Virus record (IMG/VR): IMGVR_UViG_3300042469_000933
Span: 466-64,465 of that record
Strand: one strand, 5' to 3'
Source: a virus
Lineage: Duplodnaviria; Caudoviricetes
DNA length: 64,000 bases
In this document: positions 17,872-44,300 of the stretch, piece after piece
Numbering within the stretch: position 1 is the stretch's first letter
Layout: each line of letters begins with the position of its first letter
Notes under the pieces: model-generated
The model's input: only the letters and a program-made list of their open reading frames with translations
Databases searched by the model: none
What the model was told of the DNA's origin: nothing
Made by a program: the position numbers and the translations under genes

Positions 17872-17876
17872 TGGGG

Positions 17877-20800
17877 TTAGTCGTTAAGTGGTTTGCGGAT
17901 GGTCTTGTCAGAAACGAGGTCGTAAATGTCAGCGAACGTGGCACCGCCCGGTGCAAAGTACAGGGCTTTCTCTGGATGCAGAGGTACGTTCATCAAGCGC
18001 CAGGCGTTGTTCAGCACGGGTATTGCACTGCCTCCACCACTGCCGGCCATGGTATAGACCAAACCGGGTGCGGAACCAGCAGCACCGTCCCATGCGATCT
18101 GCTTGAGCATGTCGAACATCTTGCGTTCGTACGTGTAAGCGGACTGCTTGTTGGGAGCAGTGATGAAGCTGTCCTCGTCATCATCGTCCTTCAGACCGTT
18201 GTAGATGAGGTAGCACAGAATGCACAGGATCGCGTCGTAGCTCAACTTGGCCAGCGCTCGCTTGTCAGCAGGGCGCATGTTCTTGAAGTCGGTCGTGCCC
18301 ATTTCCCGGGCATCGGACAGCATCTTGAACATGTTGCCAAGAGCGGTCACGTAGCTGGTAATCTCTCGGCGCTCCCACACGGCCATCTTCTTACCGGACG
18401 CATCGGTCTTCATAACCAGACGGCCACCGGCATCCGAGTTGATGTCCCGGCCATGCCAGTTGTAGATGCGGTCCATCATGTAGGTCTTGAACGTGGTGAA
18501 CATCCGACCGTACCATGCGCTGGAAAGGTTCGCCTTCTGCGAGGCATCCATACCACCGATGATGTACTTGTCAGCGATCCACTTGAACGTGCGGCCCATT
18601 TCAAGGTCGTAGCCCAGACGCAAGGGCTCGTTCTCTTTCTGATCCACCACACCTTGCTCGATGAGACGACGCTTCACCTCTTTGATAAGCACGCCACCGT
18701 CCTCGGTCAGCTTGCCATCGGCGCCGTACCAGCGACGGTCCTTCTTTTCGTCGTACACCACTTCGCCTTTTGGGGTCAGTGAGTACGCATCCCAGGAGCC
18801 GTCCTTCAGCATCTGTGCCATCATCACCATGCCACGCGTGTTGTTGTCGGTCCAGAAGTTACCGATGTTCATTGCGTGTCCGGAGAACAGCAGCTTGCGC
18901 GTATGGCTCTTGTTGAACGAATCAGCCAAGTCCTGTTGCTGCCACTCATTGATGAAGTGCTTCTCCATCAGTGCAGCCATCTTGTCCCGCTCCTTCTTGC
19001 TGGCCATGCGCTTGACTGCTTCGGCAAAGTGCTTCGCACTGAACAGACCATCATCTGCAATGGACGATGCTATGGAGAACCCAAGCATCTGCAGGTTGTT
19101 CATCACGCCGCTAGCCAGTGCAACTTTCCAGTTCCACGCCACACCGATGAACGATGACGCACTGATCGCCATGTTCATGATCGGAGCAGGGTTCACGCCC
19201 ATGACGTTGAACGTGTCCTTGATGGGCTCGTTGTAGATCATGCGCATGGCGTAATCCTCAAGGCTCTTCAGGTTGAACCGTTGGTCAACGCTCTCTTCCA
19301 AATTCTTGGCCAGCAACAGTGCGCGGGCTCCGTTATACACAGGGACCGTTTCCTCTTCGTGAATGATCTGGCGGTCGGTGGCCAGTCGCACGTAGTTCAA
19401 AATGATCTCCAGGTTCATGGTCGAAGCCATGTTCCGTTCATCCGCTTCCGAGATCAGCTTGCCGTCCACGATCTCCAGACCCATCCGGCGAAGACGCGTA
19501 GAGCCGCCGATCTTGGAGAGCGGTTCGTGTATCTCCAACTCAGAGCCATAGGTGTTAGACACCCGGCCCTTCTCACGCTCTCCGCTGTTCTCTCCGCTCA
19601 CGCGATCAGCATCCTGTGCGTAGATAGCATCCATGTTCGCACTGGCACCGAGCGACGTACTGAACGCTTCCTTGAACTTCAGGTTGAACACCGCCTCACT
19701 GGCCGGCCGGCGAACCACAGGAACCCATCCGCGTGGATAGTGCTTGGTCACGAACGCTTCAGCTTCTTTGCGAGCAAGCGCTTCGTCGAAGATGCCGGTC
19801 ACCGGATCCCAATGGCGCATGTCCATCTTGTAGTCATGAACGGTCTTGTCCACCATGGCCTTGTGGATCTCATCCAACGCGTAGTTGGCAAAGTCCAGTT
19901 CGGCCTGGGTGAGCTTTCCGGCCTTCAATTTGGCCGCGGTAGCTGGGTCGTTCTTGTTCCAGTGGAGCGTGTTGGTGTGCGCGCCGATGAGCTCTGTGCC
20001 ATCCTTGCGGTACACCTTGTCCACACCTTCCTCGCCGCTGAGCTTCCACATGGCCTCAAAGCGTTTCCAGCCACGGTCGGCCAGCTCTACGCCACCCGGA
20101 ACCTTCATGAAACTGGACTTCTCTTCCAAGGCCTTGATGCGAGCCGTCATTTCAGCGCGGAACACACCGTTTTTCGCAGCCAGTTTCATTACCGCTTGTT
20201 CGGTCTTGCGTACCACGGTCTGCACCACATCGCTCTGGATGTTGTGCGTGTTCTTCAGCAGGTGACCCACCATGCTCGTATCACGGATGGAGTTCGGGTT
20301 GGTCCGCCCATGCTGGTTCATGTCTTCAACCAAGTGAGCGAGCATGATGTATTCCGGGTCTGTGACCAGGTAAGCCTGTTTGTAGTCTTTCTGCATCATG
20401 CGCTGACGGTAACGAATGGCATCCAGCAGATTGGCATTGCTGCCCTCTTCGCTGAACATTGCCTTTTCAGCAGCGGTACGCAAACGGTCACGGGCTGCAG
20501 TCTCCGTGAACGAACCACCTTCACCGGACGTACGCAGGAACTCGATGTACTGCTGCAGGAACGGCTGGTTGTACGCGTCCATGTCGAACAGGGTCTCATC
20601 GTTCAACACCGCCTTGATGTTGTCCGGTATCTCGTTCATGAACGCAGGGATGTTTTTCAGTAACCGCACCTCGTGGATGAAGTCGGACATCCATACACCT
20701 CCGTCCTTCCCGTCCTTCAGGCTCAACGCCTTGATCCGGTGAAACGAAATGTTGGGGTTGGCCTGCTTCATGGCCATTGCCGTGAGCCCCATCAGGAATG

Positions 20801-23800
20801 TCCGGGCGCCGGAGCTGCTGTTGTGTGTGCGCAACTTCTTCAGTGCTGACTGGAAAGGGCCGTGCATGTACACGGAGAGCAGGTAAGGACCAGCTCCAGT
20901 GTCACCACCGGGATTACCACGGGTTGTGGGGTCAAGCAGTGACACCGACTTCTTGCCGTTGCCATCCACGTACACCTGAACGATCGGGTTGAACCCATCG
21001 AAGCCAGGCACATACTTGATGCCCAGCTCGCTCACCGGGATCTTGCGACCGTCCGATGTGGTGATGATGGTGTTCGGGTCCTTCAGGTCCGTATACTGAA
21101 GATAGATAGCGCCGGTCCGGTGCCCAGATGCTTCCTTGAACCACTTGGCGGTCTCTTTGGTCGTCATCGGGTTGCCGTCCGCGAAGACCATCTTGGTGTT
21201 CCAGTTCTGCTCAAGGTCGCCGGCCATGTTCATCACGTCCATGACCTTTAACTTGGTCTGTGCGTCGCTGGTGGACACCTTGGGCATCACGTTCTTCCGG
21301 AGGTACTCCCGGATCTGCGTATCCGTCATTCCGTCGATGGAGAAACGAATGCCATCTAGCTCCTGTGCAATGCGTGAACGGTCCAGCCTGTTGAACAGAC
21401 GCTCGACGTACTGCGAAGCCTGACGTTCTTCGTGCGTGATGAACGCCTTGGGGTCCGTCTGGAATCGGTCAACCAGGTCACGGATGTCCGTCACTGGCTT
21501 GAACTGTGGAGAAAGACCATGCTGTGCCGCGTTGGACATGCGGAACGCCTCACCCATCGGCATGCGGTCGATACCGCTCCGTGAGGAACGCTTGATGTAG
21601 TCGTAGGACAAGCTGGTGATGCGGTTCACGTAATCGTTGCGTACGTACCCTGGAAACAGCGAGCGGATCGCATTGATGATGCGCCAGAAGATGTTCTGCT
21701 TGCTGCCAGGAGCCAACGAGCGAAGGTGCTGCTGAAAATCTGGGTTGCTCAGGGTCTCAGCCAGGAACTCGTGCACGTCTTTCATGCCGTAGTGATCCGA
21801 ATTTGGATCCAGGGCCTTCACCTCGTTGAAGATGGTCTCCACTTTCTTGCGGAACTCAGCTTCCCATGCATTCAGCGAAGCCTCCGGAGCGTTCATCACA
21901 CCCATGAGGAACCGGTGCAGCGCTTCGTGCAACAATGTGTGTTCAGCATCTAGCTGCGTAATACCGTCCGACAGCATGATGTCGCCAGTGCTTGTAATGC
22001 GGCCAGCTACTCTGCCGCGAGCTCGCATATTGGCCACATACGAATCACGGTCGTGTATCTGCAACTGCTCACCAAGGAACTCAGCAAGCTGACGGTACAT
22101 CGGATGTTCCGTCTTCGACTGCAGCACCTTCAGCGCTTCCTTCAGCTGCTTTCCTTTCAGCTCCATGTGGCCGGGACCATAGGCAGACTTCTCCGACTTG
22201 GCAAAGCCCTTGCTGTCCACCTTCAGGATGTTGTTGGCCAGCGCTGGGTCTTCGTTGTTGCGAAGCTTGTGCGAGCCTGTGAGCGTACTGGCATCGAGTG
22301 TAATGGTATCTCCGGACTTCGTGAACTTGATGGACTGTCCGGTCGGCAGGGCCACCTCGTTGCGCTCCATGATCCAGCCGGTCGTGGCTGCAATGGGAAT
22401 CACCACATCCATACCGCGCAACAGTGCATCGTAATCGCTCTTGCTCCAACGCTTGTGGACGTTCAATGCAGGACGTGACGAAGGAGCAAGGTCGATGACC
22501 GTACCAAGCTGGCTCCATGGAGAGTTTACCAGCTCGCCGGTATTCACATCGAACACCGAGTAGGTCCGCATCGAGCCGACCGTTTCTTTCTCAGCATAGT
22601 AACGAGCGCCGCGCATCTTGGCCGACTTGGCAGACCAAGGGAGCATGCGCGGATGACCCACTACGAACTGACGCTTGGCAATGTCCAGCATCTTGTTGAT
22701 GTTGATCTGACTGCCATCGTTCAGCGGCACCTGGTGAAGCTTTCCGTACTGCACTACACCAGCATGCAAGCTGTTCACGAAACTATCGTAGCGCAGGTAC
22801 TCTTGAATGGGAACGAAACGAGCGATGGAAGCACTGCCCACAGCGAACTTGTCTTTCATCATGCTGTACAGCGTGACCATCTGCGACATGGGAACGTTCA
22901 GACCGTTTGCCACATCGCCGGTGAAGATCTCGTCAAGGCGCTCAGCCGCACGACGCACAGCTTCCGATTCACGCACGTCATTCATAATTTTCCGTGCCTT
23001 GGGCACCTCCAGTCGTGGTGTGCCCTTGTCCACGATACGCAGCGAGTTCAGAAACTCGTTCTGCTTCATCAGGATCTTGCGTGGGTCACTGTTCTTTAGA
23101 CGCTCCACACGAGCCATCATGGCTTTTAGGAAGCCCGGGAACTCCATGACGTAACGGTAGTGGCCACCCGGACCGCTAAGCGAAATGGGCTCCATGCCCC
23201 TGGTCAACCGGAACTGGCTATTGCCATGTGCTGTGTTCAGGTAACCCACGATCAAGGCCTGTTCAACCAAGTTCTCCCAATCGCGTCCAGCTTCGTTCGG
23301 CATGAACTCCATGCCAAGATCCTGGATCAGATCAGTGCGCGCATTGTCAACCAGGTGGTGCGCAAGCAGAATAGAATCAGAGAGCGTTTGACGCCCCCAC
23401 TCAGCGACACCGTAGAAGCCGATCATGCTCGGTATCTGCTCCATGATGCCACGAGCATCAATCACATCGTTGTACTCACCCACTCCACTACCCACCGCAT
23501 TGTTGGCAAGGCCAGCCCATGCAACACCCAGTGTCTTCTGCGTGTCATTCTTGAACTCCTTCATTGCTTCAAGCGAATGCGGGATGCCCTTGGTGTTGAT
23601 GGAGAACACACGGGAAAGGGCAGAAGATGCTTCCCCAATCGTAGCGTTCAGCTCCAGCCTCTTCAGGCCACGGATACGCTGAAGCCCATTCGGGTTCTCG
23701 GCCAACCATTGATTCATCTGCTCCGTGTCGGGCTCTTGAATAGCTACTCCATTGACGACACCTCCAGTGCGCTTCCACTCAGCGTGGTCTTTCATTGCCT

Positions 23801-26800
23801 TGACAACGTGTTCAGGCGGCATTGCTTCGCCCAGTTTCGCAGCAATGGCGTTTTGAAGCGTCTTCTTCCGAACACCGGAATCGCTCATGCTGTAGCTGTC
23901 AGCAAGCTGGTTAGTGCGCACAGCATCCTGAATGATGGGGTCTTTCAACATCAGGAACGCCTCCTTCATGGAAGCGCCGTTGATGATAGCGCCCATCAGC
24001 AGATTCACGTTGTACGAGTTCACCCCCAGCTGACCCATCACCATCAGCTTGGTATTGTCCAGCATACCGTTGAGCAACTGATTGATGTTGGCCATGACCG
24101 GACGGCCGGTGCTGTCCTTGGCTTGTGGCATCCACCCATCGAATAAAGGACTGTTGCCCTTCTCGTCCATGGTCTTCAGCGCAGCCTCCATCATGTAGCC
24201 ATAGGCCTTCATGTGCTGTGCACCGATACCGATCAGCTGTGCGCCGTCCGAAGCCATCTTTCTGGCCAACGAGTTGTGCGAAGGCGTGAACAGTTCCATG
24301 CGCATGGCGTCTGCACCGTACACTTCAGGAAACTCAGCCATCAGCTCTTCCGCCACGGCCACAAGATCTTTGGTACCGGTGGAAGCCATGATCATTTCAG
24401 CGTTGGCAGGGTCCTGATAGAACTGCCACAACGCATTCATGATGTTAGCCTGATTGACCGTCAGCGGGTCGTCACTGTCCAACGGCTCAATGGTCTCAAG
24501 CTTGGACCCATCGTCTTCGTCCACCTGAGCCTTCACGTTGCGGAAGTACACCGACAATTGATCACCATCAAAGTCACCACCAGTTGGTACGTTCATTCCT
24601 GCAGGCGTGTAGATGCTGTTGCCGGAATCATTGATGAACCCGACGATCTTCATCCACTGGCCAGAGCCAAGACCGGACGAAGGTGTACGGGTTACAAACA
24701 CGTTTAGGTACCGCTCAAATGCAGCCAGACCAGCCTCACCTTGGTCACGAAAGATCTGCTCCTTCATGGCGTCAATGGGCATGGATGGGTCGGTGATGCC
24801 AAACGTAGCAGCATGCACGAACTTGATCATAATCTCGCCCGGCATGTACTGGCCATTTTCAATGCGCGGAGGCAGAAGCTCACGCATGCTTTCAGTCTTC
24901 ACTATCTGTGAAGCAGGAGCAGGATTCTGTGCTTCCCACTCATTCATTGCAGCGGTCTGGTCCTCCAACTCTGCGCTTTGCTGAGCGGCAACATCTCGTT
25001 GCACTGAGTAGTTGGCCAGCTCTTCTTCGCTAGGGTCAACAACTTGCTCTGTCACCTCAGGCGTAAGCAGTCCATAGGCGCTGACCTGGGTAAACATTTG
25101 TCCGTGCATCTTTGGATTGATGCCATTGCGGGACAGTTCGTTCGCCAAGAATTCCACCAACTTCGGACGAAGAATAGGGTTGTTGATGTCGCTATTCGGG
25201 TTCGTGAGCATGTCCACAAACTGACCAGTACGGCCATCGGCACTCATCTTGCGCAACCCAATGCCGCGCATCCATTCTTGGACCTTCTCAGTGCGCGTCG
25301 TACCAGACTGCCCCTGGATCATCACAGCCAGCTTGTTCAGGTAGTTCTCGGAGATTTTCTGTTCGATCTCGCGAATGACCTGCAGCTGAGCCCGACTTGC
25401 TTCCGATTCCGATACGCCAAACAGAGAGCTGAGCTGCGTGAAATACGGAGCCTCCATTTCGTCCGGATCCGTTGTGCGCTCCAGTACCGTCTGCAGACGC
25501 CAGAAGCGTGAGTCCACAGCCAAAGAAACCAACGGCGTATCGATGGCCAGTTGGTTCACGCCACGAAGACCCATCTTCACGTTGCTCTCCGAGGTGAGTA
25601 GGTGCACTAGCTGGTCACTTACACCCAGCTCCTGTGCTTTCTCCATGACCGCATCCGTGGCCTTGGCAAACGCTTCAGGATTCGCATCACCAATCGCATT
25701 GTTCCAAGCATCGAGCAATGGCGTTCCGGGTATCACAGAGCCGTCAATGCCGGTCAACTCAGCCATAAGTGAGCGCTGCGTGATCTGTTGCAACCACAGG
25801 TTCTTTCCGTACAGTTCCGGCGAGATCACAGCCTCGCTGTACTTCACCTTGATGGAGTTGGTGCTGATGATGCGCTTGTTGACCGAAGCCTTGACCAGAC
25901 CCTCCTGTCCACCGAATGCACGGCGAGCAATGGCCCACCCCCATGGCGTGGTGTAGCCCTGGCCATCCAGATGACTGACGCTGTTGCCGTTTTCGTCAAT
26001 TGTCGTCATTTCAGAGAACACCGCAATGCGCGGCTCCAGCGGCATTCCGAACTGGCCACCGATCAATGGCTCGTGACCAGGAGAGAATGCAGTCACGCTC
26101 CGCTTGATGTAGTCCTGTGCGTTCTTGTAGTTGTGGGAGCCGCCGTCGATGACCGTACCCACCCAGTTGTTCACCAGGTGGCTCATCACGAAGTAGCCAT
26201 ACATCATGTTGCGACGACCGTTCGCATCAATGTTCACAGCAGGATGTTGCCAGCCGATACCTGGCGTGGTTACCGTCTCGCTCTTTACCACCTCAACACC
26301 GTTCTCCATCACCTTCGTTTCCACGGTCTCGGTCTTACCGTTGACCATTTCTTCGAATGCCTTGAAGTAGGGCTCCATGATCTCGTCCATCACAGCTACT
26401 GCACCCTTGTCGGACTTCAGCATCTTGTCCCGGTTCGCACGGCTGTAGATGCTGGAATCCGTCATCATGATCGCATGCCCGAACGACACCTTGTCGCCGT
26501 CGATCATGTAGTCAGAATTCATGGCCAGCAACGGCGATGCTTTCACCAGGTATTTGAAGCCCGGACCTTGTGCGGCATTCAGTTTGGCCAGCACTTCCGA
26601 TGCCTTTGCACTGGAGGGTAGACCAAAGAACGCAGCCCATGACCGAACCGAGTTGCCAGCAACCTGGTCCCGGTACGTGAACATATCCCTCAACCAAGCA
26701 GCCATTGGCTCCTTATTCACCGTGATGGAGCCATTGGTCTTGTTGAACAAGCGCTGGTTTCGGTCACCGGTAGGAATGTCGAGCTGATACAGCAGAATGG

Positions 26801-29800
26801 CATCACGGTCACCGAAGGGTGTGCCAGCGATACTCAACCGCTCTTCCTTGCGTGAGGACATGATATCCCGAACGAACAGATCATAGCCGATGCTAAACGC
26901 GTCACCTTGCGACAACTTGTTCGCATTCTTACCGGTCTCCTTTGTACGGGACGAGACCCCGGAGCCCAGGAACACGTTGCTGATACGCGCTGTGCTGTTG
27001 GATGGGTCAAGCAATGGAATGAGCGGAACCCCTTCTTTGCTGAGCAGAGCAGGGTCACGCTTGGCCAAATCCCTGGCCAGCATTTCCATGGCCTTGGATG
27101 AATGACTGTCCTGTGAAGCGCCTGGCAGCAGTTTGGAGAACGCTGTACCGAGGTTCGTAGCGTAGATGGTCTTTCCTGTGGCACCGACCATACGCTGCAT
27201 GTAGGACGCTCCTTTGGAACGGTTCTCCACTGTGGCCAGAGCGCGGTTCAGCGCGAAGAACATCGAAGGCATCGGGTACTCATCAACGCCGAAACCGTCT
27301 GAACGACGGTCTGCAATGTCACCTACGGTCTCTTCCCCAACACCTCCGTACGAATCATTGAAGGAAGCAATCGTTTTGTTGGAGAACAGCGAGCTGTCCT
27401 TCTTGCCGGTCTCCACACGATGAATACCCGCATGAATGGAGTAAGCCCACATACCAACGATGGAAGGCAACAAGGTCTTCTCTGCCCCTTCATTCGCTTT
27501 CAGCAAGTGGTCGATAGTGCGCGCGCTTACCGGGTAGCCGATCGCCTCAAAGAACTCTGCGAAGGCTTCCGGCTGCGTCTTGAACTCAGCACTGATCGAG
27601 AAGTTCAAACCCTTGCGGCGAACCAGCATGTTGCCGGCACCGTCCAGGACACCTTCCTCCGTGACCTTGAACTGTGGCGTCGCCTTATCCTTGGCAGAGC
27701 CCACGGCCCACTTGGAACGGAAGTCGTTGTCAAGACTGATCGAAGAAGGTCCGTTCGCAAAGAACGGGTCTCGCAACGATGTCTTCATGGTACTCAGCAC
27801 TTCACTGATCGCATCGAAGGTCAGGCGTTTGTGGTTGAACTTCGGCTGCGGCGCTTCACCGAACTGGTCAGTGCCTTCACCTTGGTAATGCTCCACCAGC
27901 CAACGGTTGCTTGCGGAGAGCTCTGCCAGCATACGCACCACGTTACCCAGCACACGCTCAGCTGCATCAATGCGAGCATCAATGTTCTCGAACTCCTTGG
28001 TGTTGGGTGTGTACTGGCTGAGCAGCCAACCGGCATTCGCCGTCATGTACGCGTAACTGCGAAGCTGGTTACCCTCTTGGTCCAGATAGAACCCATCGGG
28101 ATCCAGGTAACGCTTGTAGAACGTGTTGAGGTACATCGCCTCCTTGCTCTCCGGGTCCACAGCCATTGCCTTGCGAACAGATTCCGCCAAGGATTCAATG
28201 GTGGACACTTCCTGCGTGGGAATGGAGAACTGAGCAGCCTGTTGAACGAGGAACGTCATCAGCTCCAGGTCCACATCATACGGGTCACCAATGACACGGT
28301 TCTGGCCACCCGGCATGCGCTGGATCAGCGACATGGACTGCAGAGATAACCGGGACAGGTCGCTTTGACGCTTGAACGGATTCAGGTTCTCGTTCGTGTC
28401 GTGTGCGTTTGCCGTAGAGTTCTCAATGGCCTCCACGTCGATCTCCATGTTGGCTTCGTACTCTACCGCATCAGCAAGCTCTACTTGCGTGATGTCAGCA
28501 TTAGGCAGAGCCACACGGGTGATCATTTTGAACACCTGTGGGTCTCCTTTGTACCATGCCACGTAGTCGGACCACTGTGCATCGGTCATGGCCAGCACAT
28601 CCTGCTTAGTGGCATTGTCGAAGGACTTGACATTGCCTTCAGCGTCCGTCAGGGAGGCCACTACCCGTTGCCGGCGAGCAGCGAAGCCTTGGAGCACTTT
28701 AGTAGCTGCTTGTGACAGCGTAGGAAGACTACGACCAAATTCCGAATCAACCGGTGGAGCATAAAGCGATTCACCGATGATCTCGCGCACTGTGTCGTCC
28801 ACCACAGCCACCGCGGTCGCGTGTGAGCCGAAGATGTTGGACAGTACGTTCATGTCCTCATTCACCGAACGCTTTTTGCCGGTTGCATCTGGACGACGAG
28901 CTGGAGCAGGAGTTGATGGGTCGAAGCTGGCTGGCAACTCACCATCCTCACGAACAGAGTTGCGCACTACGGTCCGGCCACCCAAGTCATGGTCCTGTGC
29001 GCCACGGAACTCACCGTTCTCAATGCGGTACAGCAGCTCACCGATACGGTTGCTGTACATGCCCCAGCGTCCAAGCATGGCACGGAACCATTGCATGAAC
29101 CGACCGAAGAACGTAGACGTGTCGTATGAAGGTGATTCGTACTGCTCAGCGATGAACTCGTTGGCTTGTTCGTCCGTAACCTGCCAGTACGGAATGTTGT
29201 ACTTCTCAGCGTAAGCCCGTGAAGCCTCGTTAATGATGGACATCCGGCTCTGGTCGTCCAGCAACGTGTCCAGCACCCGGTGAACAGCTTCGTGTCGAGC
29301 CACACCCATCAGCACACGGCCCTTGGCATCCAAGTTCAGGGTGATGTACCCGTTCTCCATGACACCGTGGAGCGCGGTTCCGTCAACAGCCTGAAGGTTG
29401 GAACGGAAGTCCAGCTGATTGTCCACGAACCGATCACCGAACACCTTGCGATAGTAGTTCTGTGCGGCCTCTTGTGATTCGGTACGCGACGTGTCACCAG
29501 CAGATGCAGCACGACGACGAACTGGAGCACGATACGGAGCTGAACTTACTCCAGTGCCAATGACACCTGACGAGTTCGCGCCAATGGCAAACTCTGGAAG
29601 GTTCACACGGTCCGTTGACGGTATCAGGTCCCAGGTGTTGTCGATGATGCTCATGCCACCAGCGGAGCGGTTGCCGATCATCGCAGCCTTGGTAAGCATG
29701 ATCTCGCTATCACGTACCAGTTCTACGGCTTTGCGAAGGTCATTGGCCCACTTGAGCGGGGTCATGCCTTGTGCACGGGTGCCGCGAAGCATCTGCGGCT

Positions 29801-32800
29801 TTCCCTTCTCGTTGATGGTCAAGAACTCATTCAGGCCTTCAACGACAAATTGCCCATCCTTGATGAGCACACTGCGGTTCCACTGGATAAATCCGAATGC
29901 TTTCGTCTTCTCGATGTTGTCACGGTCAAATGACGGTACTGCAGCGATCTCATCCGTGACGTTATCCAGCTCACGAATCAGGTCCTGGTAATACTTGGAA
30001 TCAGCTTCCTTGGTCCGCATGAACACCTTCGTAGCAGGTGCTCCGTCCCAAGCAGAAACCTCCACAACAATTGCCGGCATCGACACCAGGTCTGTTCCCT
30101 CTTTGCGAGTCCATCCAGCGCCCTGTGGACTTCCGGCATGCGCCATCACAGGGTCGGTGACGAACAAGCCACGTCGCTCTACCAACTGAATGAAGGCTTC
30201 GTAATCGCCAACAGCTTCAGCCTCCACATTGTTACGAACGCCTTCGTACAGCTCACCGACTGGAATGTTGGAATACTTGGCGATTGTCTTACCCTCTTCC
30301 CATTCATTGGCGAATAGCTCTTCGGCAAAACGATCCATTTCCAGTTTGAATGGACTGTCCTGAGCCAAGGTGTTCATGAACAATGAACCCACCATGGTGT
30401 ACCCAGCGGCTTCAAGTTCTGCCTGGGTCATCTGGGGCATCTTGTTCTCCTTCAAGATCCTGTTGACCATGGCTGCACCGTTGGCTACATGAACCTCGAC
30501 ACCAGGAACCTTGGCAGCTCCATTGTCTCCGGTCCATTCACCCTCTACACGCTTGACTAACTTCATTGTGAAGCTTCCTGGATCTGACCAGATAGCCTTC
30601 ATTACGCCCATACGGATGACGAAGGCCTTGTTCGTGATAGAGAGCGCGGTTTCGTTGTTCGGGAACTTAGGCGTCCAGCGGAACGAAGCAGAAGAACTGA
30701 TGAACGCTGTTCCGGCGCTGTCGCTGCGTTTGGATACACGGGTTGGAACTCCTGCAGGAGCATCTTCAGGAATGGGGTTTTCACCTTCCTTGTCATCCAC
30801 TGGCTCTTCCTCGTTGTCGGTAGTAGGCTCTGCATCATTGGGGTCAGCCGTAGGAACCGGAGTGCCCTTGGCGTTCTTCAGGAAGCTGTTCTTGATACGC
30901 AGCTCGTCACCGTTCTGACGACGAACCTTGGTCACCTTGCCATCATCCTCCACCACGGTCAGATACTCACCGTAAAGATCCTGCATAGCCCGGCCTTGCT
31001 TGCTTTTCTTGAACTTGGAGTTCACCTGAACCATTGCACCTGGTGCGCGGCCTTTCTGTACGACCGGTGCATTCGGATCCGTTGGTGCCGTAGTGGGCGG
31101 GGCAGGCGCCGTTGGAGCGGTCGGCACAACGTCAGCTGGTACACGTGGTGCCAGGTCACGATGCACGGCAGACAGGTACCCGCGTACCCGTGACGAAATC
31201 TCGTTGAGGCTTTGACCGTCCGAAGGGATGGGCATGATCTTGTCCACCTCAGAGGACTGACCATTCGGAAGCAGTGCAACAGCACCGTTCTTACCACGGC
31301 TGATCGCTGTGTATAGGAAGCGTCCGAAAGCATTGTCGAAGCCAGCAGGGTCCAGCGCCACGAACGCTACGTTGGCTTCGAGACCAAGCACGCTGTGCTC
31401 GCCTCCGTCCATGGTCAGGATACGCGCTTCGTGTCCAGGTGTGAATGCGGAGATCTTGGCCATTGCCAGGATCGCTTCCTGACGCTGTGCCTCGTCCTTC
31501 ACAATGAGAATGGCGTCACCGCTGAACTCACTGTTGTTCACGCTCTCGGACAAGTGCGCTCCGAACGCATTGTAGATGGAAGAGATACCACCTCCGGACA
31601 TGTACCGTACACCGTGGTTGTTCTTGGTGTAGTGCGATGCCGGCAGGACGATAGAGTTCTGGGTGCCGCTGGCGATGTACGAACGCAGTGCATCAATGGA
31701 ACGCAACACCTCGGCGTTGTTGTGCCGGAAACTCACTTGAAGCGGCGCCGTACGCATGGATGCGCGCTGCACAGGGAACGTGTAAGACATGTTCCGGAGC
31801 GAAGGCACCTGAGCAGGGTCACCAAGCATCAAAGCCCCCGTCTCCGGGAGCTTCTCCATCATGCCCTTCATCTGAAGGACCGCATTGCCATCCATGACGT
31901 GCGCTTCGTCGTAGATGATGAGATCCAGGTCTTTGGGCGGATTGCTCATGTCCGTGATGTGTACAGGCTCGTGCGTGTACTCCTTGGTGGACATCACGAT
32001 AGCACTGGAGAGCTCCGTTACGTTCTTCGTACCGGGCGCTATGATACCCACACGAAGCTTCCGGCCCTTGATGTTGGCTACCGTGTTCACGATAGCAGGG
32101 ATCAGCATCTTCGTCTTGCCCACACCTGGCATGCCCGGGATAGTGATCGCACGAGGAATGATGATCGCTCCTTGAGCCAACGGAGCAACGATAGTCGTGA
32201 GCTTGTGGGTCAGGTCATGGTCCGGATTGCTCAGGAACGAACTGGCCTCGATCACACGCTGCTGCTGTTCTTCGTTTGGAGCGTAGCCCACAGTGGATGC
32301 TGCGGTACCGACGAACCGTGCGTAAGCGTCCAACACGGTCGCGTGACGGTTCCGGGACAAGCGGCTCACCCAGCCCACCATGTACTGAAACCCAGCCATA
32401 GCCTTCACGATGGAAGGCTTCTGTCCATCATCCAGAAACAGCTCTTCATTGAACCTTGCCGGAAACGAAGCATTGTCGATGGACTTCGTTTCGTAGTAGT
32501 TGGAGGCTGACTTCAGCTGACCGTTCAACAGGTCACCGTAGGTCTCCTTGATCAGCGCAATACCCGTCTCATCACCGGTGACTAAAAGCTCGCTCACCAT
32601 GTCCTCCGCACGGTTCACCAGCACCTCATAGTTGTCGTTTGGAATGGCGCCTGGAGTTGAAGCAAAAGCATCGAGCTCAGCTTGCATCAGCTTCACCGTT
32701 TCAATGAACTCCGGCTTGGTGGAGAGCTTGCCTGCCGTTCCAGCCAACTTCAGCAGCAGCGAACCACGGAGCATCAAGTCAACACGGCGGATCTGGTCCA

Positions 32801-35800
32801 GCTGCTCTTTCCGCTTGTTCACCATGCCTTCCATGCGCTCAAGCTGGCGCTCAAGATCGGCGATGATGTCAGTAAGCTCCTGATTAAACTGGTTCGCATC
32901 GATGGTAGCAGCAGGGTCATACACTTGTGACTTCTCCTGCTTGAACTGTGCAAATGCCGGTGGAACAGCATTGCCGGACTGTGCAGACCCGGCCTTCATC
33001 AGCTTCTCGTCACCGAAGAACTTCTCGGCCACCTGGTGCATGGTGGTGGAATAGTGCTTGAAGACCTCTTTGTTGGACTTGGCCAAGTTGATCAGCGAGG
33101 CCAGGGTCTGGATGTCAGCGATACTCGGCGTCTCGGTGAGCTTGAAGCGCTCAATAGCGCCACGGAATAAAGCGACCGAAGCGTTATCTCCGGTCGGGTG
33201 CGACTTCAAGAACTCAGCGAGCAGGTCTGCCTGACTACGCTTCCCTTCGAGTTCCGCTGCCGGCATGTACTGTTGAGCCACAGCATCACGTTCTGCCGGA
33301 GTCTTGCCGAACATGCTCATCTGGTCATTGAGGATCTGCAACTCACGGAACGCGATGCTCCGTTCGTCACTCTCAGGAAGAGCGTTGATACGCTGCGGGT
33401 TCAGGCCGGATGTGATCCACTGCTCAAACTCCAGCGCGCCGGAAGGGTCTTCTGCTGCATGTGCCTCATCAAACGAAGTATTGGGGCTCGTGTCGCTCAA
33501 CGCCTCCATCTTGGCCAGGTCTGCGATGAGCGCCTGCTTGGCATTGGCCAACGCAGTGTATCCCTCCTGAACTTCCTCACGGGTCATGGCGGCATTTCCA
33601 GGCTGTGCATTGAGCACCTTGTTTGTGACCTGACGATAGCCAATGATCGCATCCAGGATCTTGCTTGTCTTTGCCGTGGAGAGGTTGTCAATAGCATCGC
33701 TCAGCTCCGTGCCAATGCTCTGACGGAACAGATTTACTTCCTCGATACGCGCCTCACGTGCGGCTGTCCAGTCGGTGAATCGCTTGGTGATGACATCGAC
33801 CTGCTCTGAATTGGCAAAGCCTTCATCCTTTGCGTCAATGGAGTTTATCAGCATGGCCCGCTGCTTGAACCGATTCAGCAGCTCGGTGCCATCCAGAATC
33901 TTGGCAACAGCCTGTTTGTTGACCTCAAGACTTTTCTCCAACTCCGCTTTCTCAGCTTCACGCTGCTCTGCCGTCTGACCTTCAGCGAGCGGCTGCTCAT
34001 TCAAGTCAGCAAGCTGCTTGTTGATGCCCTCCATTTCCATCCGACGCTGAGCGTACTCCGTCACCATGTCCTGTTCTTGCAGGAGCAGGTTCAGAGTCTT
34101 GGGGTCAGCAACATTGAATTCGCGCATGATGCTTTCAGAGAGCCGAACATCTTGCGTCAGAACGTTCACATCGTCCTCGGTAAGTGTCCCGGCCTGCTGC
34201 ATGGTTGCAGCCCTGTCCAGGATCTCCTTGCCCTTGCCTTCTGCAACGGCGCCGGCAACACCCTTATCGTAAGGATTGGGACGGCTACGGCCGTTGTTCA
34301 GCATGGCCATTGGCATGGTGCCCACAAAGCCACCTACAGCACTTTCCAGCACACGTGCGCTGAAAGAGTAGTCCTCCGGCCGGCTTTTCTCAAATCGGTT
34401 CTCGTTGGTCATCCAGTCGGTCGCCCACTCAAGCAAAGCATACCCGCCCTCTTCAAAGCCCTCCTGCTTGCCTTCAGTGTACATGGCCTCCAGACTGTTC
34501 TTTGCCCAGCCACCGAAACGACCTGCTGGCTCCTTGGCCCACCACTTAGCGAGATTTGAGTTAATCATCAGCGCCTTGTTCAAGGGGCTCATACGCTCTG
34601 GGATCTTCCGGCTCAACCACTCACTGATCTTGTCACGGGTCACGTTGGCACCACCCTTGTCCATGTAGGACCGGATCATCCATTGACGACCGATCGCCAT
34701 TTCAGCAATACCCATGATGGGCAGCGCCACAATGGCCTGGACCTTCGCCTGGTCGTGGCTGTATCCGACATCGCGTGCGGACTGATACACGATCTGACCC
34801 ATCGTGAGCGACGGAATGGAAGCAGAGCCAACGGCAACCGTGCGCTGGCCAAGCGAACTCAGCTGAGGCGTCATGCCATTGATAATACCACGAGTCACCA
34901 AGGACTTGGCACCGGTCTTCAAGAGCGCCTGAGCAAGCAGGGTAGCGCCGGCCTTTTGCGGAAGCAGGAATCCGGTCATGTCGCCGAACAACGTTCCAAG
35001 ACCTTCTGCACTTCCGAACATGCCATGAGCCTCTACGTTCTCACTGGGATTGAACGTGCTGGCATCCTGATAGATCTTGAACCGGTCTGCGTAACGCTCA
35101 AGGAATCCACGACCTGTGTTGCCTTGATGAGCATTGTACATTTCAAGGGCCAGACGGGACTTCACGTCACCTTGCTTTGCGGCCGCCTTGTAGCCCTCCA
35201 AATTGTTGTGCACATCCTGCACCATTGCATTGATGCGCTCCTGAGTAGGGCCAGGACCGCGTGCACCAAGGGTGATTGCTCCACGCTCAAGATCCGGAAC
35301 GGCTCCATCGGTCCAGTCACCACCAAGGTGACGCTCAACGTCAGCAGCAGTAGAAAGTCCGGTGTTTTCCAAATTGTGGTAAGCCTTGGCCCAAAAAGCC
35401 ACATCGCTGGTTTGTTTCTCACCCAGTGCGGCCTTGGCGGCATTAGCCCAGAACACCACTCCGTTGTAGGTCGCATACAGAGCAGCCTGAGCTGCGTTGC
35501 GGTTCAATGGCTGCGGACCGTTACCGCCCAGCATTTCCATCCCGTAGCCGGGACTGTTACGTGGTATGGCCTGAAGGCCGGGCACTTCAAGCAGGTCACC
35601 ATCTGGACCGGTGGTCGTGACCGGAACGACAGCAAAGCGCCTGGTGTTGTGGAAGAAGCTTGGAATGTGCTCAGACTTCAGCGGTTGGCGTTTGCCAAAC
35701 TCATCAATGAAGAACGGCATAGAAGCGGCCATTTCCTGGCGCGACTTCCCGTCAGCGGCCATGCGCTCACCGTCAATAGACTTGTACTCGTAAGGGTTGA

Positions 35801-36185: not shown

Positions 36186-36189
36186 GATA

Positions 36190-41399: not shown

Positions 41400-44300
41400 T
41401 CAGGTGTTTGATAGGCTAAAAGTAGTGACGGCCGATTGAGCCCAGATTTCTTCACCGGAATCCCAATGGTACTCCAGCGTAAGCCATGAACCACGAAGCG
41501 GAGAGCCAACGCCGTAGTCGGTACCGGCGATCACCGATGCTGCGCGTGGGAGCGGGTGCCTCCAAGCGTTTTCCTTGTACGTTGGACGGAAGGTCGGTGG
41601 AGCGCTCGGCAATGGAACGAAGGGTACCAACGAACCCAGCTGTGAACCACTGGAGCAGAACAGGGCGCTAGGGGCCGGCACGGTCCCGAACAGGTGTGAA
41701 GAAGCGTAGACCTTGGTCCTGTCCGGGCTGGGAGCCGAGACGAATCCAAGGAAGGACTGTGGGTCACGACCGTAGAACGAGGTCCGTAGAGCCGTTGCAG
41801 AGTCGTGACGGTAAAAACGGCCACGGGGAGTGGTTGGGTTCCTCCAGGGCAAGAAGGCGGGGTCTGCGGAGTACAGATCGGATCCGATGGTCGTGTACAC
41901 TCCGGAATCATGGCTTCGCTCATGGAGGTACTGGTCCAGCGTCTCCGAGAACACCAGGCTCCGGGTCGTGATTGGAGAGCTGGCCACGATGAACGTCCAC
42001 CCCACTTCCTTGTACCGGGGAGAGACCCAAGCCGCAACGCCACCGACACAGGCTGGAGCGTCATTGCTCGGATGCGCGATGTCACCATGGTCCGTGAGCA
42101 GCTCAGCGATGTCGAACACATCCGAAGCGAACTTCTTAATGCTCGAAAGCCGTTGCATGCCCTGACCGGCCGAGAAGCGCCAAATGGTCCGCTGCCGATG
42201 GTCGTAACCGTACCATCCCAGGGCGCCCCTGACAATGCTCCATTGATTCTGTGAGCCAAGTTCAAGGCCAACGGTCTGAAAGCGAGAGGAAAGGACTTCC
42301 CCTTCTCCGATGATGAGGCTTCCGCCCTGGCCATCACCGGCCACTCCGCGCTCAGCTGTGGCATGAACAATGGTGTTGAACTCCTGCACACTGAACAGCC
42401 GGCCACCATCGGTGATCAGCTTCACGATCTCTCCATGCGCCGGGTCAAAGTCCTTGAATGCGGCCAGGTCCCAGCGACGGTAGCCGTCAATGATCTCTCC
42501 GGTCGCTTTCTTGCCGCTGTAACGCACTCGAACCGGGAACTTGGATGATGCGCTCGGAGACTGAGCGTCATAGCCCTGACGACCGTAATCGCCAAGAATG
42601 CGATTGTAGCCAGCGTTGTAGGAATTGCTTTCCAGGTTGTCTCCGAACTGGAACGAGAAGAACCCGGGATCTCCAGACTGCACGGCTGGGTAGTAGGTTA
42701 CGTTTACGTTCTCTCTCATTCGCATAGCCGGGTTCATGGCACACTCCTGTACAGCGCCGATCATGTTGCCATACTTGTAGTAACGGCCATTGGACGCATA
42801 TTCGGAGTCCTGGTATCCGTCGTCAGACGTCTGACGGTGATAGGTGCGCTGTACAAAGCAGTCACCACGGTAGAAGCTCTGTGCACCAATAGCAGCAATT
42901 CCCGCTAGAGGCAGGAAAGAGCTGATCCGATGGTAGATCTCTGTTACCGGGTTGTACAGCGTGGCGATGTTCAGCGTCACAGGGTCGCTCTGGTAGATGT
43001 TGATCACCACAGCATCATTGGCTCCGGGCAACAGGCTCGTGTTAAAGTTGGCCGTGTTCGGAGCTTCGGTCATCACTCCGATGTACCCTCGCTGCTGAAT
43101 GCCACGGTTGCCCCATTCGCGCTTACAGCCGGTTACTATGTTGTATGCATAGAGCATGTACGGCTCCCCTAATGCTTGTGCCGATTCACCAGCTTCTGCG
43201 AACTTGGACACGAACCCACCTTCAGCCGGTGAGAGTTCCCTAGGCGCCACGTTGATAAGCTTCGCTGTTCCGTAGTTTGGCGTTGCTCCGGCATCGGTAA
43301 GAACCGGTGATCCAGGTGCAAATGCACGCTGTTCCCAAAGCTCGTCCGGAAGGCGGCTGTTCGCACTTGTACCGGTGTAACCGCTGGACATGCCGTAGCG
43401 GTTCAGTGTGCTGCGGCCTTGAATGACCATCTTGTACGTCCCATCAGCCAGTGACCTGGTGAAAAAGTGGTCCGTGGAGAAGATGCCAAACCGGTTCGCT
43501 ACACGAGAGCCCGGGATATCATACTGACGGAAATAAATGTCTCCGGGATCGCAGCCTTCCTTGCTTCGAATAGCCACCCTGAACACGCTGGAATTACCGT
43601 AACCCTGACTGAACTCCGCAATGATGTTCGCAGAGCTGTCACCAGCGTCCGGACCGCCGATCTGAACGCCGGCGTCCGCATACCAAGTTCCACCTGGTGG
43701 AGCAGAGAAGCCATTGGCTACATGTCCTTGGTAAAGGAGCTGGTTCTTGCGTTCGGCGCGCATGAAGTAATACCCGCACACGTTGTCCTGCATCCACTGC
43801 GGAAGCACCAAGGCCGAGGTATCAAAGCGCACACCCAGCACGTAGATGCGGTCGCCGGCACCACGGTTCTGATAGAAGGCATAATCCGTGTTCATGTTGG
43901 ACGGCATGCGCAGGGTTCCGTTGGCGTTGGTCGTGACCGCTCCGGGGTCGTTCCACGCATCGTAACCGCGTACCGGGAACGCCTGGCTCTCCTTTCCATC
44001 CTTAAACACCCACACCACAGCGAACGCGTAGGGCTCGCCCCGGAAGTAGCCTACGTGTGAGAACGTGTCCTGGTAGTCTTTGTAACCAAAACGCGTGGAA
44101 GTGTTCGTACGGAAATCGCCATCGCTTTCCTCAAGCAGATCTGCTGAAGGTGTTGGCACGGCCAGTATCTGCTGAGCGGCCGCATACAGCAAGTCATTGC
44201 GGGTGAAGCGTTCCTTCCAGTTTCCACCCCAGAGGTACCCTTCGTGCTGAGCGATCGTCCGGGGAGAGTCGTTTACGGTCTTGCGCTGAATGATTTCGTC

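Follow-up and report, generated by a model that had tools for sequence, protein, structure and literature searches.

The closest described counterparts of the protein analyzed here come from crassviruses. Cellulophaga phage phi14:2 encodes its virion RNA polymerase (RNAP; gp66, PDB 6VR4) in the three-gene set gp67-gp66-gp65, and Bacteroides phage crAss001 carries separate genes for gp47, gp49, and gp50, whose products have masses of 262.5, 154.5, and 276.9 kDa, respectively (Bayfield et al., PMC10172136). Fusion of the RNAP with its partner virion proteins, the probable cleavage of the product, and the presence of a zincin domain in it are all already in print: Drobysheva et al. (bioRxiv 10.1101/2020.03.07.982082), citing Yutin et al. 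2018, refer to a fused “huge polyprotein” of crAss-like phages, and a review of the Crassvirales mentions an “RNA polymerase gene up to ~6000 aa” (PMC10136315). In the texts searched, we found no description of a helicase or of a second zincin domain in the fused protein; Yutin et al. 2018 or its supplements may contain one. Autoproteolysis has been proposed for polyvalent proteins with zincin-like MPTase domains (PMC5512222). The HExxH-bearing virion RNAP (vRNAP) of coliphage N4 is reported to be packaged unprocessed, and a region that includes its HExxH domain is needed for encapsidation (PMC5512222); a structure paper from 2026 places the HExxH-bearing C1 subdomain inside the C-terminal domain of the N4 vRNAP (PMC13434306). 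For the Thermus phage P23-45, in which a tape-measure protein (TMP) is fused to the RNAP, the authors propose coupling of DNA translocation to transcription (PMC10770324).

The locus and its relatives

Judging from its signature structural genes, the phage represented by the window (the whole stretch of 64,000 nucleotides that was analyzed) appears to be of the Crassvirales type. It shows PHROG matches for TerL, portal, and the major head protein (MCP), and its 1,297-aa muzzle ORF matches Pfam family PF25731, crAss_MUZ (7.9e-37, 127 bits at a cutoff of 27), as well as crAss001 gp44 (phmmer, 3e-6). All 151 tblastn matches of TerL are below 60% identity; among the matches listed, identity is ~27 to 30%, mostly to crAss-like phages. 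The habitat is freshwater, the GC content is 55%, and a search of the window for tRNA genes gave none. The principal features, all on the minus strand, are as follows.

41400..45293 (-): crassvirus muzzle protein, 1,297 aa
38419-41394 (-): Cys-free ORF of 991 aa, upstream of the giant by gene order
36250-38415 (-): Cys-free ORF of 721 aa, upstream of the giant by gene order
17877..36185 (-): whole giant ORF, 6,102 aa, 675 kDa, pI 5.7, only 2 Cys
34296..35018 (-): Gly/Ala-rich, moderately hydrophobic helices of the N-module (aa 390-630), a candidate membrane-active part by hydropathy
31026..32288 (-): predicted SF1B (RecD/Dda/Pif1-like) helicase domain (aa 1300-1720), with Walker A at 32112-32135
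30702..30923 (-): acidic, Pro-rich, linker-like stretch (aa 1755-1828), from a composition scan
29004..29492 (-): predicted zincin 1 domain (aa 2232-2394)
29280-29294 (-): HEAVH of zincin 1 (aa 2298)
29157-29159 (-): Glu2343, predicted third ligand of zincin 1
28851..29000 (-): junction 1 linker (aa 2396-2445), the probable boundary between the gp47-like module and the RNAP
22116..28658 (-): predicted RNAP module (~aa 2510-4690, bounds extrapolated from gp66)
23826-26168 (-): conserved core of the RNAP (aa 3340-4120)
24561-24575 (-): predicted catalytic DFDGD of the RNAP (aa 3871)
21486..22268 (-): predicted zincin 2 domain (aa 4640-4900)
21915-21929 (-): HEALH of zincin 2 (aa 4753)
21756-21773 (-): HEFLAE of zincin 2 (aa 4805-4810)
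17916..21188 (-): C-module (c1, c2; aa 5000-6090), by its conservation profile the best-conserved part of the giant
18201-18257 (-): hydrophobic segment of the C-module, which holds both Cys residues

The 991-aa and 721-aa ORFs occupy the place of the crAss001 cargo genes gp45 and gp46; they had no sequence match among the crAss001 (gp45, gp46) and phi14:2 proteins and are therefore assigned by position only. The giant and these two ORFs together contain 2 Cys in 7,814 aa, compared with 1.48% Cys in 15 other window proteins (P = 6e-47), and the cargo proteins of crAss001 and phi14:2 have 0 to 3 Cys each. Such strong Cys depletion offers a simple marker by which ejected proteins might be recognized in further uncultured phages.

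The giant ORF is a real gene that encodes a single chain. It is a single ATG-to-stop frame without an internal stop, and the same motif order is found in 8 other proteins of 5,491 to 7,388 aa, making 9 of 9 giants collinear (with the window protein included in the alignment set). A locus search of IMG/VR with a single sequence gave no match; an alignment-based search yielded 16 loci. In 15 of them, the frame holding the RNAP match has no stop and continues beyond the 5' edge of the fetched locus; 14 of these 15 frames exceed 4,400 aa. Among the listed sequencing runs that contain the sequence, none is an RNA run. A chimeric assembly, or a sequencing error that merged several genes, would be compatible with the observation that no one contig in four independent lake metagenome runs bridges the full ORF span (18.3 kb), and no other support for such an artefact was found. 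However, collinear giants are known from unrelated samples at identities down to ~20%, contigs from the same four runs cover 30 of 30 bins of positions 17001-36900 with 0 indels and 0 joints, and variants are concentrated at codon position 3 of the giant frame (33 of 40 among the sites listed; binomial P = 2e-10), which leaves an artefact hardly credible.

Relatives of the giant are numerous. An RNAP profile search retrieved 2,290 clusters (50% identity) at E≤1e-3, and 87 of the best 145 representatives are at least 5,000 aa long, with the module order always the same. A word-index search limited to proteins shorter than 3,356 aa retrieved none with the RNAP region; the exhaustive profile search returned many shorter members, some of them surely truncated with their contigs. 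In L008 and L010/L011, which are naturally split, the break separates the RNAP from the C-module. These sequences show the fused state to be the common form in a very large uncultured clade. The initial annotation had noted that identical fusions already common in described relatives would lower the novelty; the fusion has been published before (Drobysheva et al.) and characterizes the majority of these best representatives. For the parts queried by tblastn, this clade has no BLAST-detectable deposited relative: 50,697 GenBank phage records contained no match to aa 3000-4333, aa 5300-6102, or the helicase of the window protein, nor did queries from two relatives, L004 (RNAP region) and L009 (helicase), match any of them; the 1,889-aa RNAP ORF of relative L016 gave one short match. 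A scan of the giant in four pieces against Pfam and PHROGs detected the helicase and two weak PHROG matches and nothing else, and an ESM Atlas search returned unnamed viral clusters only, with LPD-domain leads.

Predicted modules of the giant protein

The giant probably represents, at a rough probability of 0.8, the entire crassvirus-type RNAP cargo set as one polypeptide, comprising a gp47-like N-module, a gp66/gp50-type RNAP, and a gp65/gp49-like C-module. Resembling crAss001 gp47, the N-module would comprise helices of weak hydrophobicity, with an SF1B helicase inserted, and would end in a zincin; the middle part would be a two-barrel virion RNAP akin to phi14:2 gp66 and crAss001 gp50; and the C-module, akin to phi14:2 gp65 and crAss001 gp49, would open with a second, paralogous zincin. 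The motifs named in the initial annotation lie where it had put them (Walker A at aa 1351, HEAVH at 2298, DFDGD at 3871, HEALH at 4753, and HEFLAE at 4805-4810), as do the hydrophobic Gly/Ala helices at the N terminus (aa 390-630, 1.58) and the C-terminal hydrophobic segment (aa 5977-5995, 1.62). Its proposal that functions usually distributed among separate giant virion proteins of crAss-like phages are fused here agrees with the HMM tile matches to gp47/gp50/gp49 and gp66/gp65, and its readings of the DFDGD region as a crAss-type virion RNAP and of both conserved HExxH motifs as parts of zincin-type folds are borne out by the structural models and profile comparisons described below.

The DFDGD region is predicted to be a crAss-type two-barrel virion RNAP with polymerase activity. 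The three Asp residues of the DxDxD motif are invariant in two alignments (A1, 9 sequences, and A4, 11 sequences). The best Foldseek match of the AF2 model of aa 3340-4120, and its sole match at E≤1e-3, is the phi14:2 vRNAP (6vr4_A; E 3e-6, prob 1.00, 881 columns, TM(query) 0.42), obtained with a low-confidence model (mean pLDDT 54.9, pTM 0.50); RNAP beta' chains, QDE-1, and phage RNAPs rank below it. Co-linear HMM tiles (Z=1000) reach E values as low as 2.3e-8 against phi14:2 gp66 and 5.5e-6 against crAss001 gp50. Neither phmmer with the RNAP region nor hmmsearch with its profile recovered gp66 from the PDB; their sole matches, designed helical repeats, were discarded as compositional.

The hydrophobic region at aa 390-630 of the N-module (Kyte-Doolittle 19-residue maximum, 1.58) was assigned no family by the Pfam, PHROGs, or ESM Atlas searches; an HMM named “Nterm” was found in 48 of the 87 giants, and HMM tiles revealed no link of the first 2,100 aa to phi14:2 gp67 or to the N-terminal part of crAss001 gp47. 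The region at aa 1300-1720 is predicted to be an SF1B helicase in which the full set of motifs is preserved. It contains the Walker A motif GMPGVGKT and a DEAH-type Walker B at ~aa 1426 and scores above the Pfam cutoffs for AAA_30 (31.5 bits, cutoff 27) and AAA_19 (27.9 bits, cutoff 25.1). The invariant columns of its alignment (A6; G52, G57, K58, D127, E128, D157, Q160, R202, T327, and R331) spell out GxxxxGK, DE, D..Q, R, and T...R. While a single-sequence phmmer search of the PDB with this domain had no match, its profile matches 9kwf_B (4e-15), RecD (2e-7), Dda (1.3e-5), and Pif1 (2.3e-5).

The giant contains three HExxH motifs, versus 0.1 expected by chance from its composition. One of them, HEPVH at aa 1405 within the helicase, is present only in the three closest sequences and was rejected as a third zincin motif, being attributed to chance; the remaining two occupy aligned positions in all 9 giants. 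These two HExxH domains are predicted to be paralogous lethal-factor-like (gluzincin, M34-like) zincins with near-invariant catalytic residues. In zincin 1, all 14 aligned sequences share H2298, E2299, H2302, and E2343, and in 103 family domains the HExxH is kept in 102 and the Glu in 101. The core of its AF2 model (pLDDT 80 to 95) is arranged as helix, beta-sheet, HExxH helix, and Glu helix, with the motif residues on predicted helices 116-129 and 159-171. VIA aligns this model with PPEP-2 (Z 6.4, rmsd 4.0, 119 aligned) and the catalytic domain of lethal factor, residues 598-776 (Z 6.1, rmsd 4.9, 127 aligned), Z values that the tool's note ranks as middling; zincin-type folds form the majority of the top 13 rows. 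A BFVD search gave 8 matches at E≤1e-3, of which the four with names are crAss-like phage proteins. Foldseek found nothing in the PDB at E≤1e-3, and the sole PDB matches of the zincin 1 profile, CENP-I and FimD (E>0.07), were discarded. An HMM tile of zincin 1 matches aa 2104-2202 of crAss001 gp47 (1e-8, Z=1000).

Comparison of the two domains with hhalign gave 91.3% and E 9.7e-7. The zincin 2 profile matches the lethal-factor fragment 2l0r_A (7.5e-4) in an alignment that spans HExxH and EFFAE, as well as the “internal virion protein” 9sfn_G (0.015), and its HMM tiles match aa 237-355 of phi14:2 gp65, which include HEIMH at 245 (5e-16, Z=1000). HExxH is retained in all 57 family domains of zincin 2; position +53 is acidic in 48 of them, and position +57 is Glu in 41. 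No curated Pfam peptidase family scored above its cutoff in the window protein (Peptidase_Mx, 12.1 bits versus 27; Peptidase_M90, 14 versus 26.2), so the zincins are filed at the superfamily level only. The best Pfam scores among relatives were for DUF6782 (3e-5, 1 of 8) and SprT-like (0.005, 2 of 8), and the giant had no match to a Pfam PolyVal family.

HMM tiles of the C-module (Z=1000) match aa 1182-1322 of phi14:2 gp65 at 2.7e-9 and aa 850-1282 of crAss001 gp49 at 2e-4 to 2e-3. Its hydrophobic segment (aa 5977-5995; Kyte-Doolittle, 1.62) has Cys at 5988 and 5991. The boundary at junction 1 was extrapolated from crAss001 gp47, in which HEAFH lies at residue 2157 of 2341; the linker has pLDDT <50 for model residues 216-251 and is poorly conserved (identity to distant members, 0.13 to 0.18). 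A second variable junction linker covers ~aa 4450-4700. Each zincin is located ~200 to 250 aa or less from a probable module boundary, and 2,455 aa separate the two HExxH motifs, a distance close to the lengths of phi14:2 gp66 (2,180 aa) and crAss001 gp50 (2,412 aa), as the initial annotation had it when describing the intervening segment as about one RNAP long.

Possible roles of the zincins

From the sequence comparisons, the zincins appear to have belonged to the flanking partner proteins before these were fused. Phages with separate genes also retain them, as HEAFH in crAss001 gp47 and HEIMH in phi14:2 gp65, so cutting of the fusion cannot be their original role; they would bracket the RNAP because each is inherited as the end-domain of the partner on its side, not a domain recruited to the fusion. 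This sharpens the printed cleavage hypothesis: since the zincins occupy terminal positions in the partner modules and came before the fusion, any cleavage of the fused chain must be told apart from earlier functions, for example activating the polymerase or attacking host targets.

By analogy with phi14:2 and crAss001, we infer that the giant would be packed in the capsid, be threaded through the tail before or with the DNA, and transcribe early genes; its proteolysis, too, is suggested by analogy. As a tentative first choice, the zincins may cleave their own chain in a limited way, at the two variable linkers of the junctions (~aa 2396-2445 and ~aa 4450-4700), giving three gp67/gp66/gp65-like pieces. 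The second choice is an intact chain, with the zincins possibly acting on inhibitory elements of the polymerase or on host targets, and the remaining weight falls to other or noncatalytic roles.

The stricter version of the cleavage hypothesis, printed by Drobysheva et al. (10.1101/2020.03.07.982082), would be that the zincins exist to cut both junctions in cis and that a free RNAP of ~2,200 aa is required for activity. The retention of the catalytic His-Glu-His and distal Glu of zincin 1 and of HExxH in zincin 2, the position of each domain near a module boundary, and the variability of the junction regions, with low pLDDT at junction 1, all fit this version, and the split genes of relatives show that the modules are able to work as separate chains; cleavage has also been put forward for polyvalent proteins in general (PMC5512222). 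Nevertheless, the persistence of zincins in phages with three separate genes, the lack of HExxH in crAss001 gp49, and the N4 vRNAP, whose HExxH domain is part of a chain reportedly packaged unprocessed (PMC5512222) and resides as the C1 subdomain in its C-terminal domain (PMC13434306), make strict self-processing rather unlikely. It is possible, if doubtful, that the whole chain remains uncleaved, is anchored in the envelope by its hydrophobic segments, and couples DNA entry to the helicase and the polymerase, while the zincins act on peptidoglycan, host proteins, or inhibitory elements of the polymerase. Such a tethered machine would be consistent with the conservation of the covalent linkage over a very large clade, the presence in the same chain of an SF1B helicase whose motifs are intact, and the hydrophobic segments near both ends, and it has precedents in the 3,500-aa, unprocessed N4 vRNAP and the P23-45 TMP-RNAP fusion (PMC10770324). 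However, fused and split forms interconvert within the clade, so the covalent tether is not essential, and the hydrophobic segments barely attain the usual transmembrane thresholds.

Degeneration of the HExxH domains into noncatalytic scaffolds with zinc-binding or structural roles, e.g., as encapsidation signals, would find a parallel in the N4 region needed for encapsidation (PMC5512222) and would accord with the subcutoff scores of all Pfam peptidase families and the middling VIA Z values (6.4 at best). The general-base Glu is dispensable for metal binding alone, and yet 102 of 103 zincin 1 domains and all 57 zincin 2 domains have it, which makes this explanation improbable. A more speculative and rather remote scenario sees in the helicase-bearing lineage an ordered delivery device, in which the N-terminal part would open the envelope, the helicase would supply a single-stranded DNA template or pull the DNA, and the zincins would then cut both linkers and thereby free and activate the polymerase, with the near-absence of Cys as an adaptation to unfolded transit through the oxidizing periplasm. 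Were it true, the giant would provide the first demonstration of an autoproteolytic polyprotein in the cargo that tailed phages eject.

Comparison with named systems

The P23-45 protein gp96 is a 5,002-aa tape-measure protein that is fused to a two-barrel virion RNAP with DFDGD and also has metallopeptidase and membrane domains (PMC10770324); it appears at rank 48 in the Foldseek list of the RNAP model. It belongs to a siphovirus tape-measure context and has its RNAP at the N terminus, and kinship to the giant was detected at the level of the RNAP fold and not beyond it. The N4 vRNAP and the polyvalent proteins (Iyer et al. 2017, PMC5512222) provide another giant ejected chain that combines an RNAP with interspersed lethal-factor-like HExxH domains, but the N4 RNAP is T7-like and single-subunit, whereas the RNAP of the window phage is predicted to have two barrels.

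The parallels with crAss001 extend over the whole chain: the C-terminal HEAFH domain of gp47 corresponds to zincin 1, gp50 (with DFDVD) to the RNAP, and gp49 to the C-module; the summed mass of gp47, gp49, and gp50 is ~694 kDa, compared with 675 kDa for the giant, and both phages have the muzzle gene and two smaller genes, for cargo proteins in crAss001 and putatively so in the window phage, directly upstream. Unlike the single gene of the window phage, the crAss001 genes are separate and located on two strands, gp49 has lost its HExxH, and gp47, gp49, and gp50 all lack Walker A. In phi14:2, the transcription order gp67-gp66-gp65 is the N-to-C order of modules in the giant, gp66 matches its RNAP in fold and sequence profile, and gp65 matches zincin 2 and the C-module, HExxH included; the muzzle and other structural genes form the same context, and the proteins of both phages are Cys-poor. 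Differences include three genes instead of one, the absence of HExxH and Walker A from gp67 (the N-module of the window protein has a predicted SF1B helicase and zincin), identity below BLAST detection, and a marine origin, as opposed to the freshwater, 55% GC phage of the window.

The fused crAss-like polyproteins already in print are of the same kind, uniting three virion proteins and a zincin-like domain in one chain for which cleavage has been proposed. The window giant adds to them a clean, well-mapped example, in which gp47-, gp66-, and gp65-type modules can be traced along a 675-kDa chain; the available text on the printed forms names one zincin, in the gp65 orthologues, and no helicase, whereas the window giant has two predicted paralogous zincins, both with intact motifs, and a predicted SF1B helicase.

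Genuineness, family and setting of the giant gene

The source is a linear IMG/VR virus record of 64,465 bp (completeness estimate, 77%), of which the window, with a GC content of about 55%, omits only the first 465 bases. The giant gene, whose frame runs from ATG to stop over 6,102 codons, is genuine. Every motif that the initial annotation had claimed for its product was confirmed at the claimed position.

Features of the giant protein (17877..36185, minus strand)
aa 390-630, Gly/Ala-rich segments of moderate hydrophobicity
aa 1351, Walker A motif GMPGVGKT
aa 2298, HEAVH motif
aa 3871, DFDGD motif
aa 4753, HEALH motif
aa 4805-4810, HEFLAE motif
aa 5977-5995, hydrophobic segment

Three HExxH motifs were seen in this chain versus 0.1 expected from its composition; HEPVH at aa 1405, restricted to the three closest sequences, is a chance motif. 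Read support, an open point in the initial annotation, extends along the entire ORF: all 30 bins of 17001-36900 are covered, with zero indels and zero joints, by contigs from four runs that carry no flag as a possible source, with no one contig crossing the whole stretch. Codon position 3 of the giant frame takes 33 of the 40 listed variant sites (P = 2e-10).

A word-index search limited to proteins of 3,356-10,679 aa found 8 other giants (5,491-7,388 aa; 19-88% identity in the RNAP region), and all 9 align collinearly from end to end, with Walker A, HExxH, DxDxD and HExxH in a single order. An alignment-based scan of IMG/VR yielded 16 loci, in 15 of which the RNAP match lies inside a stop-free frame that continues beyond the 5' end of the retrieved sequence; 14 of these frames exceed 4,400 aa despite the missing 5' end. 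Complete ORFs are found in the related loci L016 (RNAP bearing, 1,889 aa) and L017 (4,415 aa). When the RNAP core served as query in an exhaustive profile search, 2,290 clusters (50% identity) were retrieved at E<=1e-3, 1,484 at <=1e-10 and 417 at <=1e-30. Among the 145 new representatives in the best 150 of these matches, 87 reach 5,000 aa or more and 56 reach 6,000 aa or more (maximum, 7,010 aa); contig ends have probably truncated many of the shorter ones, and module order is constant wherever the modules are detectable.

Upstream of the giant gene and on the same strand are genes for the terminase large subunit (TerL), portal protein, major head protein, endolysin and tail fibre protein. 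The three genes immediately before it encode a 1,297-aa crassvirus muzzle protein (Pfam crAss_MUZ, E 7.9e-37), a 991-aa ORF and a 721-aa ORF, which is the gene order of gp44 (muzzle), gp45, gp46 and gp47 in Bacteroides phage crAss001. TerL matched 151 phage records, every one at <60% identity; identity is about 27-30% for the 15 listed matches, most of which are crAss-like phages sampled from the gut. The muzzle match, the gene order and the TerL matches identify the phage, by sequence comparison, as a distant freshwater relative of Crassvirales with high GC content. Window positions 22001-32000 are present in 20 runs from 20 lake and freshwater metagenome studies (at least half of the sampled words in 10 of the 20), and therefore the phage or its close kin are widespread in freshwater. 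The GC content of the window is far higher than the 27-39% of the 16 related IMG/VR loci, and no tRNA genes were found in the 64-kb window. Just downstream of the giant gene (11522-17871, minus strand) are two large Cys-rich ORFs of 951 aa and 1,169 aa (31 and 22 Cys), the latter with three hydrophobic segments, for which the family search gave nothing beyond a weak PKD match; they may encode external or receptor-binding proteins. Of two neighbouring, overlapping genes at 2462-4005 (plus strand), one codes for a prokaryotic E2 protein of family D (Prok-E2_D, E 6e-11) and the other for a protein resembling ThiF/E1 (E 7e-9); in the crAss001 annotation, the ThiF-like gp76 lies beside gp77, which has a metalloprotease domain.

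Polymerase, helicase and zincin modules

Searches of the PDB by sequence with the RNAP region did not reach the virion RNAP gp66 of Cellulophaga phage phi14:2, either by phmmer or by the family profile, as expected, because crAss-type virion RNAPs have been termed extremely divergent (PMC7886860). An alignment of 11 sequences gave an AlphaFold2 (AF2) model of aa 3340-4120 with low confidence (pLDDT 54.9); the best Foldseek match of this model, and the sole one at E<=1e-3, is 6vr4_A, the structure of gp66 (E 3e-6, probability 1.0, 881 columns), followed by RNAP beta' chains, QDE-1 and other phage RNAPs. Family HMM tiles match gp66 co-linearly around DFDID, to 2.3e-8 (Z=1000), and crAss001 gp50 around DFDVD, to 5.5e-6. 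The fold and tile comparisons agree with the polymerase assignment of the initial annotation.

The segment aa 1300-1720 exceeds the Pfam cutoffs for AAA_30 and AAA_19, matches RecD, Dda and Pif1 when used as a profile, and has the set of SF1 motifs preserved in all 10 sequences aligned. A helicase was detected by HMM in 62 of the 87 related giants, and a Walker A motif in 80. The helicase regions of the window and of its relative L009 had no tblastn match among 50,697 GenBank phage records. A lead to helicase-bearing forms in reference genomes comes from BFVD, where zincin 1, the HEAVH domain, matches at rank 10 (E 2.8e-3) a fragment of an uncultured phage cr50_1 protein called 'DNA helicase'.

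For zincin 2, the HEALH domain, the family profile matches the anthrax lethal-factor catalytic fragment (2l0r_A, E 7.5e-4) via HExxH and an EFFAE helix, with weaker matches to two phage structures of ejection or internal virion proteins (9sfn_G, 0.015; 8vb2_A, 0.67). The profile search with zincin 1 gave no match; this domain is homologous to zincin 2 (hhalign, 91.3%, E 9.7e-7), the 77 aligned columns spanning the strand and the helices that bear HExxH and Glu. In the AF2 model of zincin 1, residues 53-200 form a confidently predicted core (pLDDT 80-95), laid out as an N-terminal helix, then a small sheet, the helix with HExxH and, further on, a helix with an invariant Glu. Foldseek found nothing significant in the PDB for this model. 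In VIA-align, PPEP-2 (Z 6.4) and the lethal-factor catalytic domain (Z 6.1) lead a ranked list that is consistently zincin, with Z values that the tool itself flags as middling; lethal-factor-N-like domains, PprI, PPEP-3, Spartan, lugdulysin and ArdC are also near the top. Zincin 1 has 8 BFVD matches at E<=1e-3, of which the four with names are proteins of crAss-like phages; among the weaker matches are annotations as polyvalent-protein domains, lethal factor and IrrE-like. Both domains are classed at the superfamily level only, because no Pfam peptidase family passed the cutoff for either of them; the profile match, the structural alignment and hhalign agree in placing the HExxH motifs in zincin folds, as had been proposed.

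Within the family, HExxH is conserved in 102 of 103 zincin-1 domains (distal Glu, 101 of 103) and in 57 of 57 zincin-2 domains. Among 96 giants with 5,000 aa or more, HExxH flanks DxDxD on both sides in 52, lies upstream only in 17 and downstream only in 6, with 21 left unscored where the strict DxDxD pattern missed.

Possible cleavage of the chain by the zincins

The initial annotation viewed the giant as a fusion with zincin folds, and this part stands by HMM tiles, profile search and AF2/VIA-align; its further suggestion of self-processing has, in our estimate, about an even chance. The giant would be packaged and then ejected, with early transcription to follow, and the zincins might cleave the chain. 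Their active sites are intact, and each lies some 200-250 aa away from an inferred boundary between modules. The linkers at both junctions are variable: that at aa 2396-2445 is poorly conserved and of low pLDDT, and that at aa 4450-4700 differs widely in length. Such cleavage is less likely to be the reason that the zincins exist, as they are older than the fusion and are retained in split genomes: both cultured phages examined keep one or more zincins in the cargo set, in gp47 (crAss001) and gp65 (phi14:2). Judged from these sequences, retention in split sets is consistent with an older and essential function, for instance in activating the polymerase or in acting on the envelope or host proteins. 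Drobysheva et al. (bioRxiv 10.1101/2020.03.07.982082) described the fusion and its probable cleavage, and reported for gp65 and its orthologues a protease domain of zincin-like type, with RNAP activation or peptidoglycan digestion as its possible functions.

Fused and separate cargo proteins

The zincin 1 tile matches the C-terminal end of the 2,341-aa crAss001 gp47 (aa 2104-2202, E 1e-8), which has HEAFH at 2157, and the zincin 2 tile matches phi14:2 gp65 (aa 237-355, E 5e-16), with HEIMH at 245. Tiles of the C-terminal module match gp65 (aa 1182-1322, 2.7e-9) and crAss001 gp49 (aa 850-1282, 2e-4 to 2e-3). No similarity of the first 2,100 aa to phi14:2 gp67 or to the N-terminal part of gp47 was found with HMM tiles. 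With tiles matching gp47, gp66/gp50 and gp65/gp49, the proposed joining of virion functions in a single chain holds at the level of sequence. The covalent state varies in the clade, the frame being broken between the RNAP and the gp65-like module in L008 and in L010/L011. In L008, the frame with the RNAP and the gp65-like ORF lie about 2.6 kb apart (nt 13516-16139); the two frames of L010/L011 overlap by 15 nt (L010 nt 15157-15172), and these could be adjacent genes or a frameshift. L016 (105.6 kb, 30% GC) has the RNAP alone in its ORF and zincin-2-like domains in two further ORFs, of which one is on the other strand.

The giant contains 2 Cys (aa 5988 and 5991), both in the C-terminal hydrophobic segment, and the 721-aa and 991-aa ORFs have none, so that this putative ejected cargo set has 2 Cys in 7,814 aa versus 115 expected (P = 6e-47) from 15 other window proteins (116 Cys in 7,862 aa, 1.48%). 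The cargo proteins gp45-gp50 of crAss001 and gp65-gp70 of phi14:2 are likewise depleted (0-3 Cys each), and the 87 related giants have a median of 0.17 Cys per 1,000 aa. Such depletion would suit proteins that travel unfolded across the periplasm. The phi14:2 tail protein gp70 (27361-29142 of the phi14:2 sequence L020) contains HExxH twice, as HEFTH (234) and HEFIH (461).

As a kind of machine, the giant is not novel: a Crassvirales review gives an RNAP gene of 'up to ~6000 aa' (PMC10136315), the P23-45 paper mentions vRNAP fusions in crAss-like and N4-related phages (PMC10770324), and Iyer et al. described one to five interspersed zincin-like domains in polyvalent proteins (PMC5512222). The partner proteins of crAss001 and phi14:2 lack a Walker A motif, whereas the giant has both this motif and a helicase. 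The transcription order of gp67, gp66 and gp65 in phi14:2 is the N-to-C order of the modules in the giant, whose mass is 675 kDa; the three RNAP-associated cargo proteins of crAss001 virions total about 694 kDa (PMC10172136).
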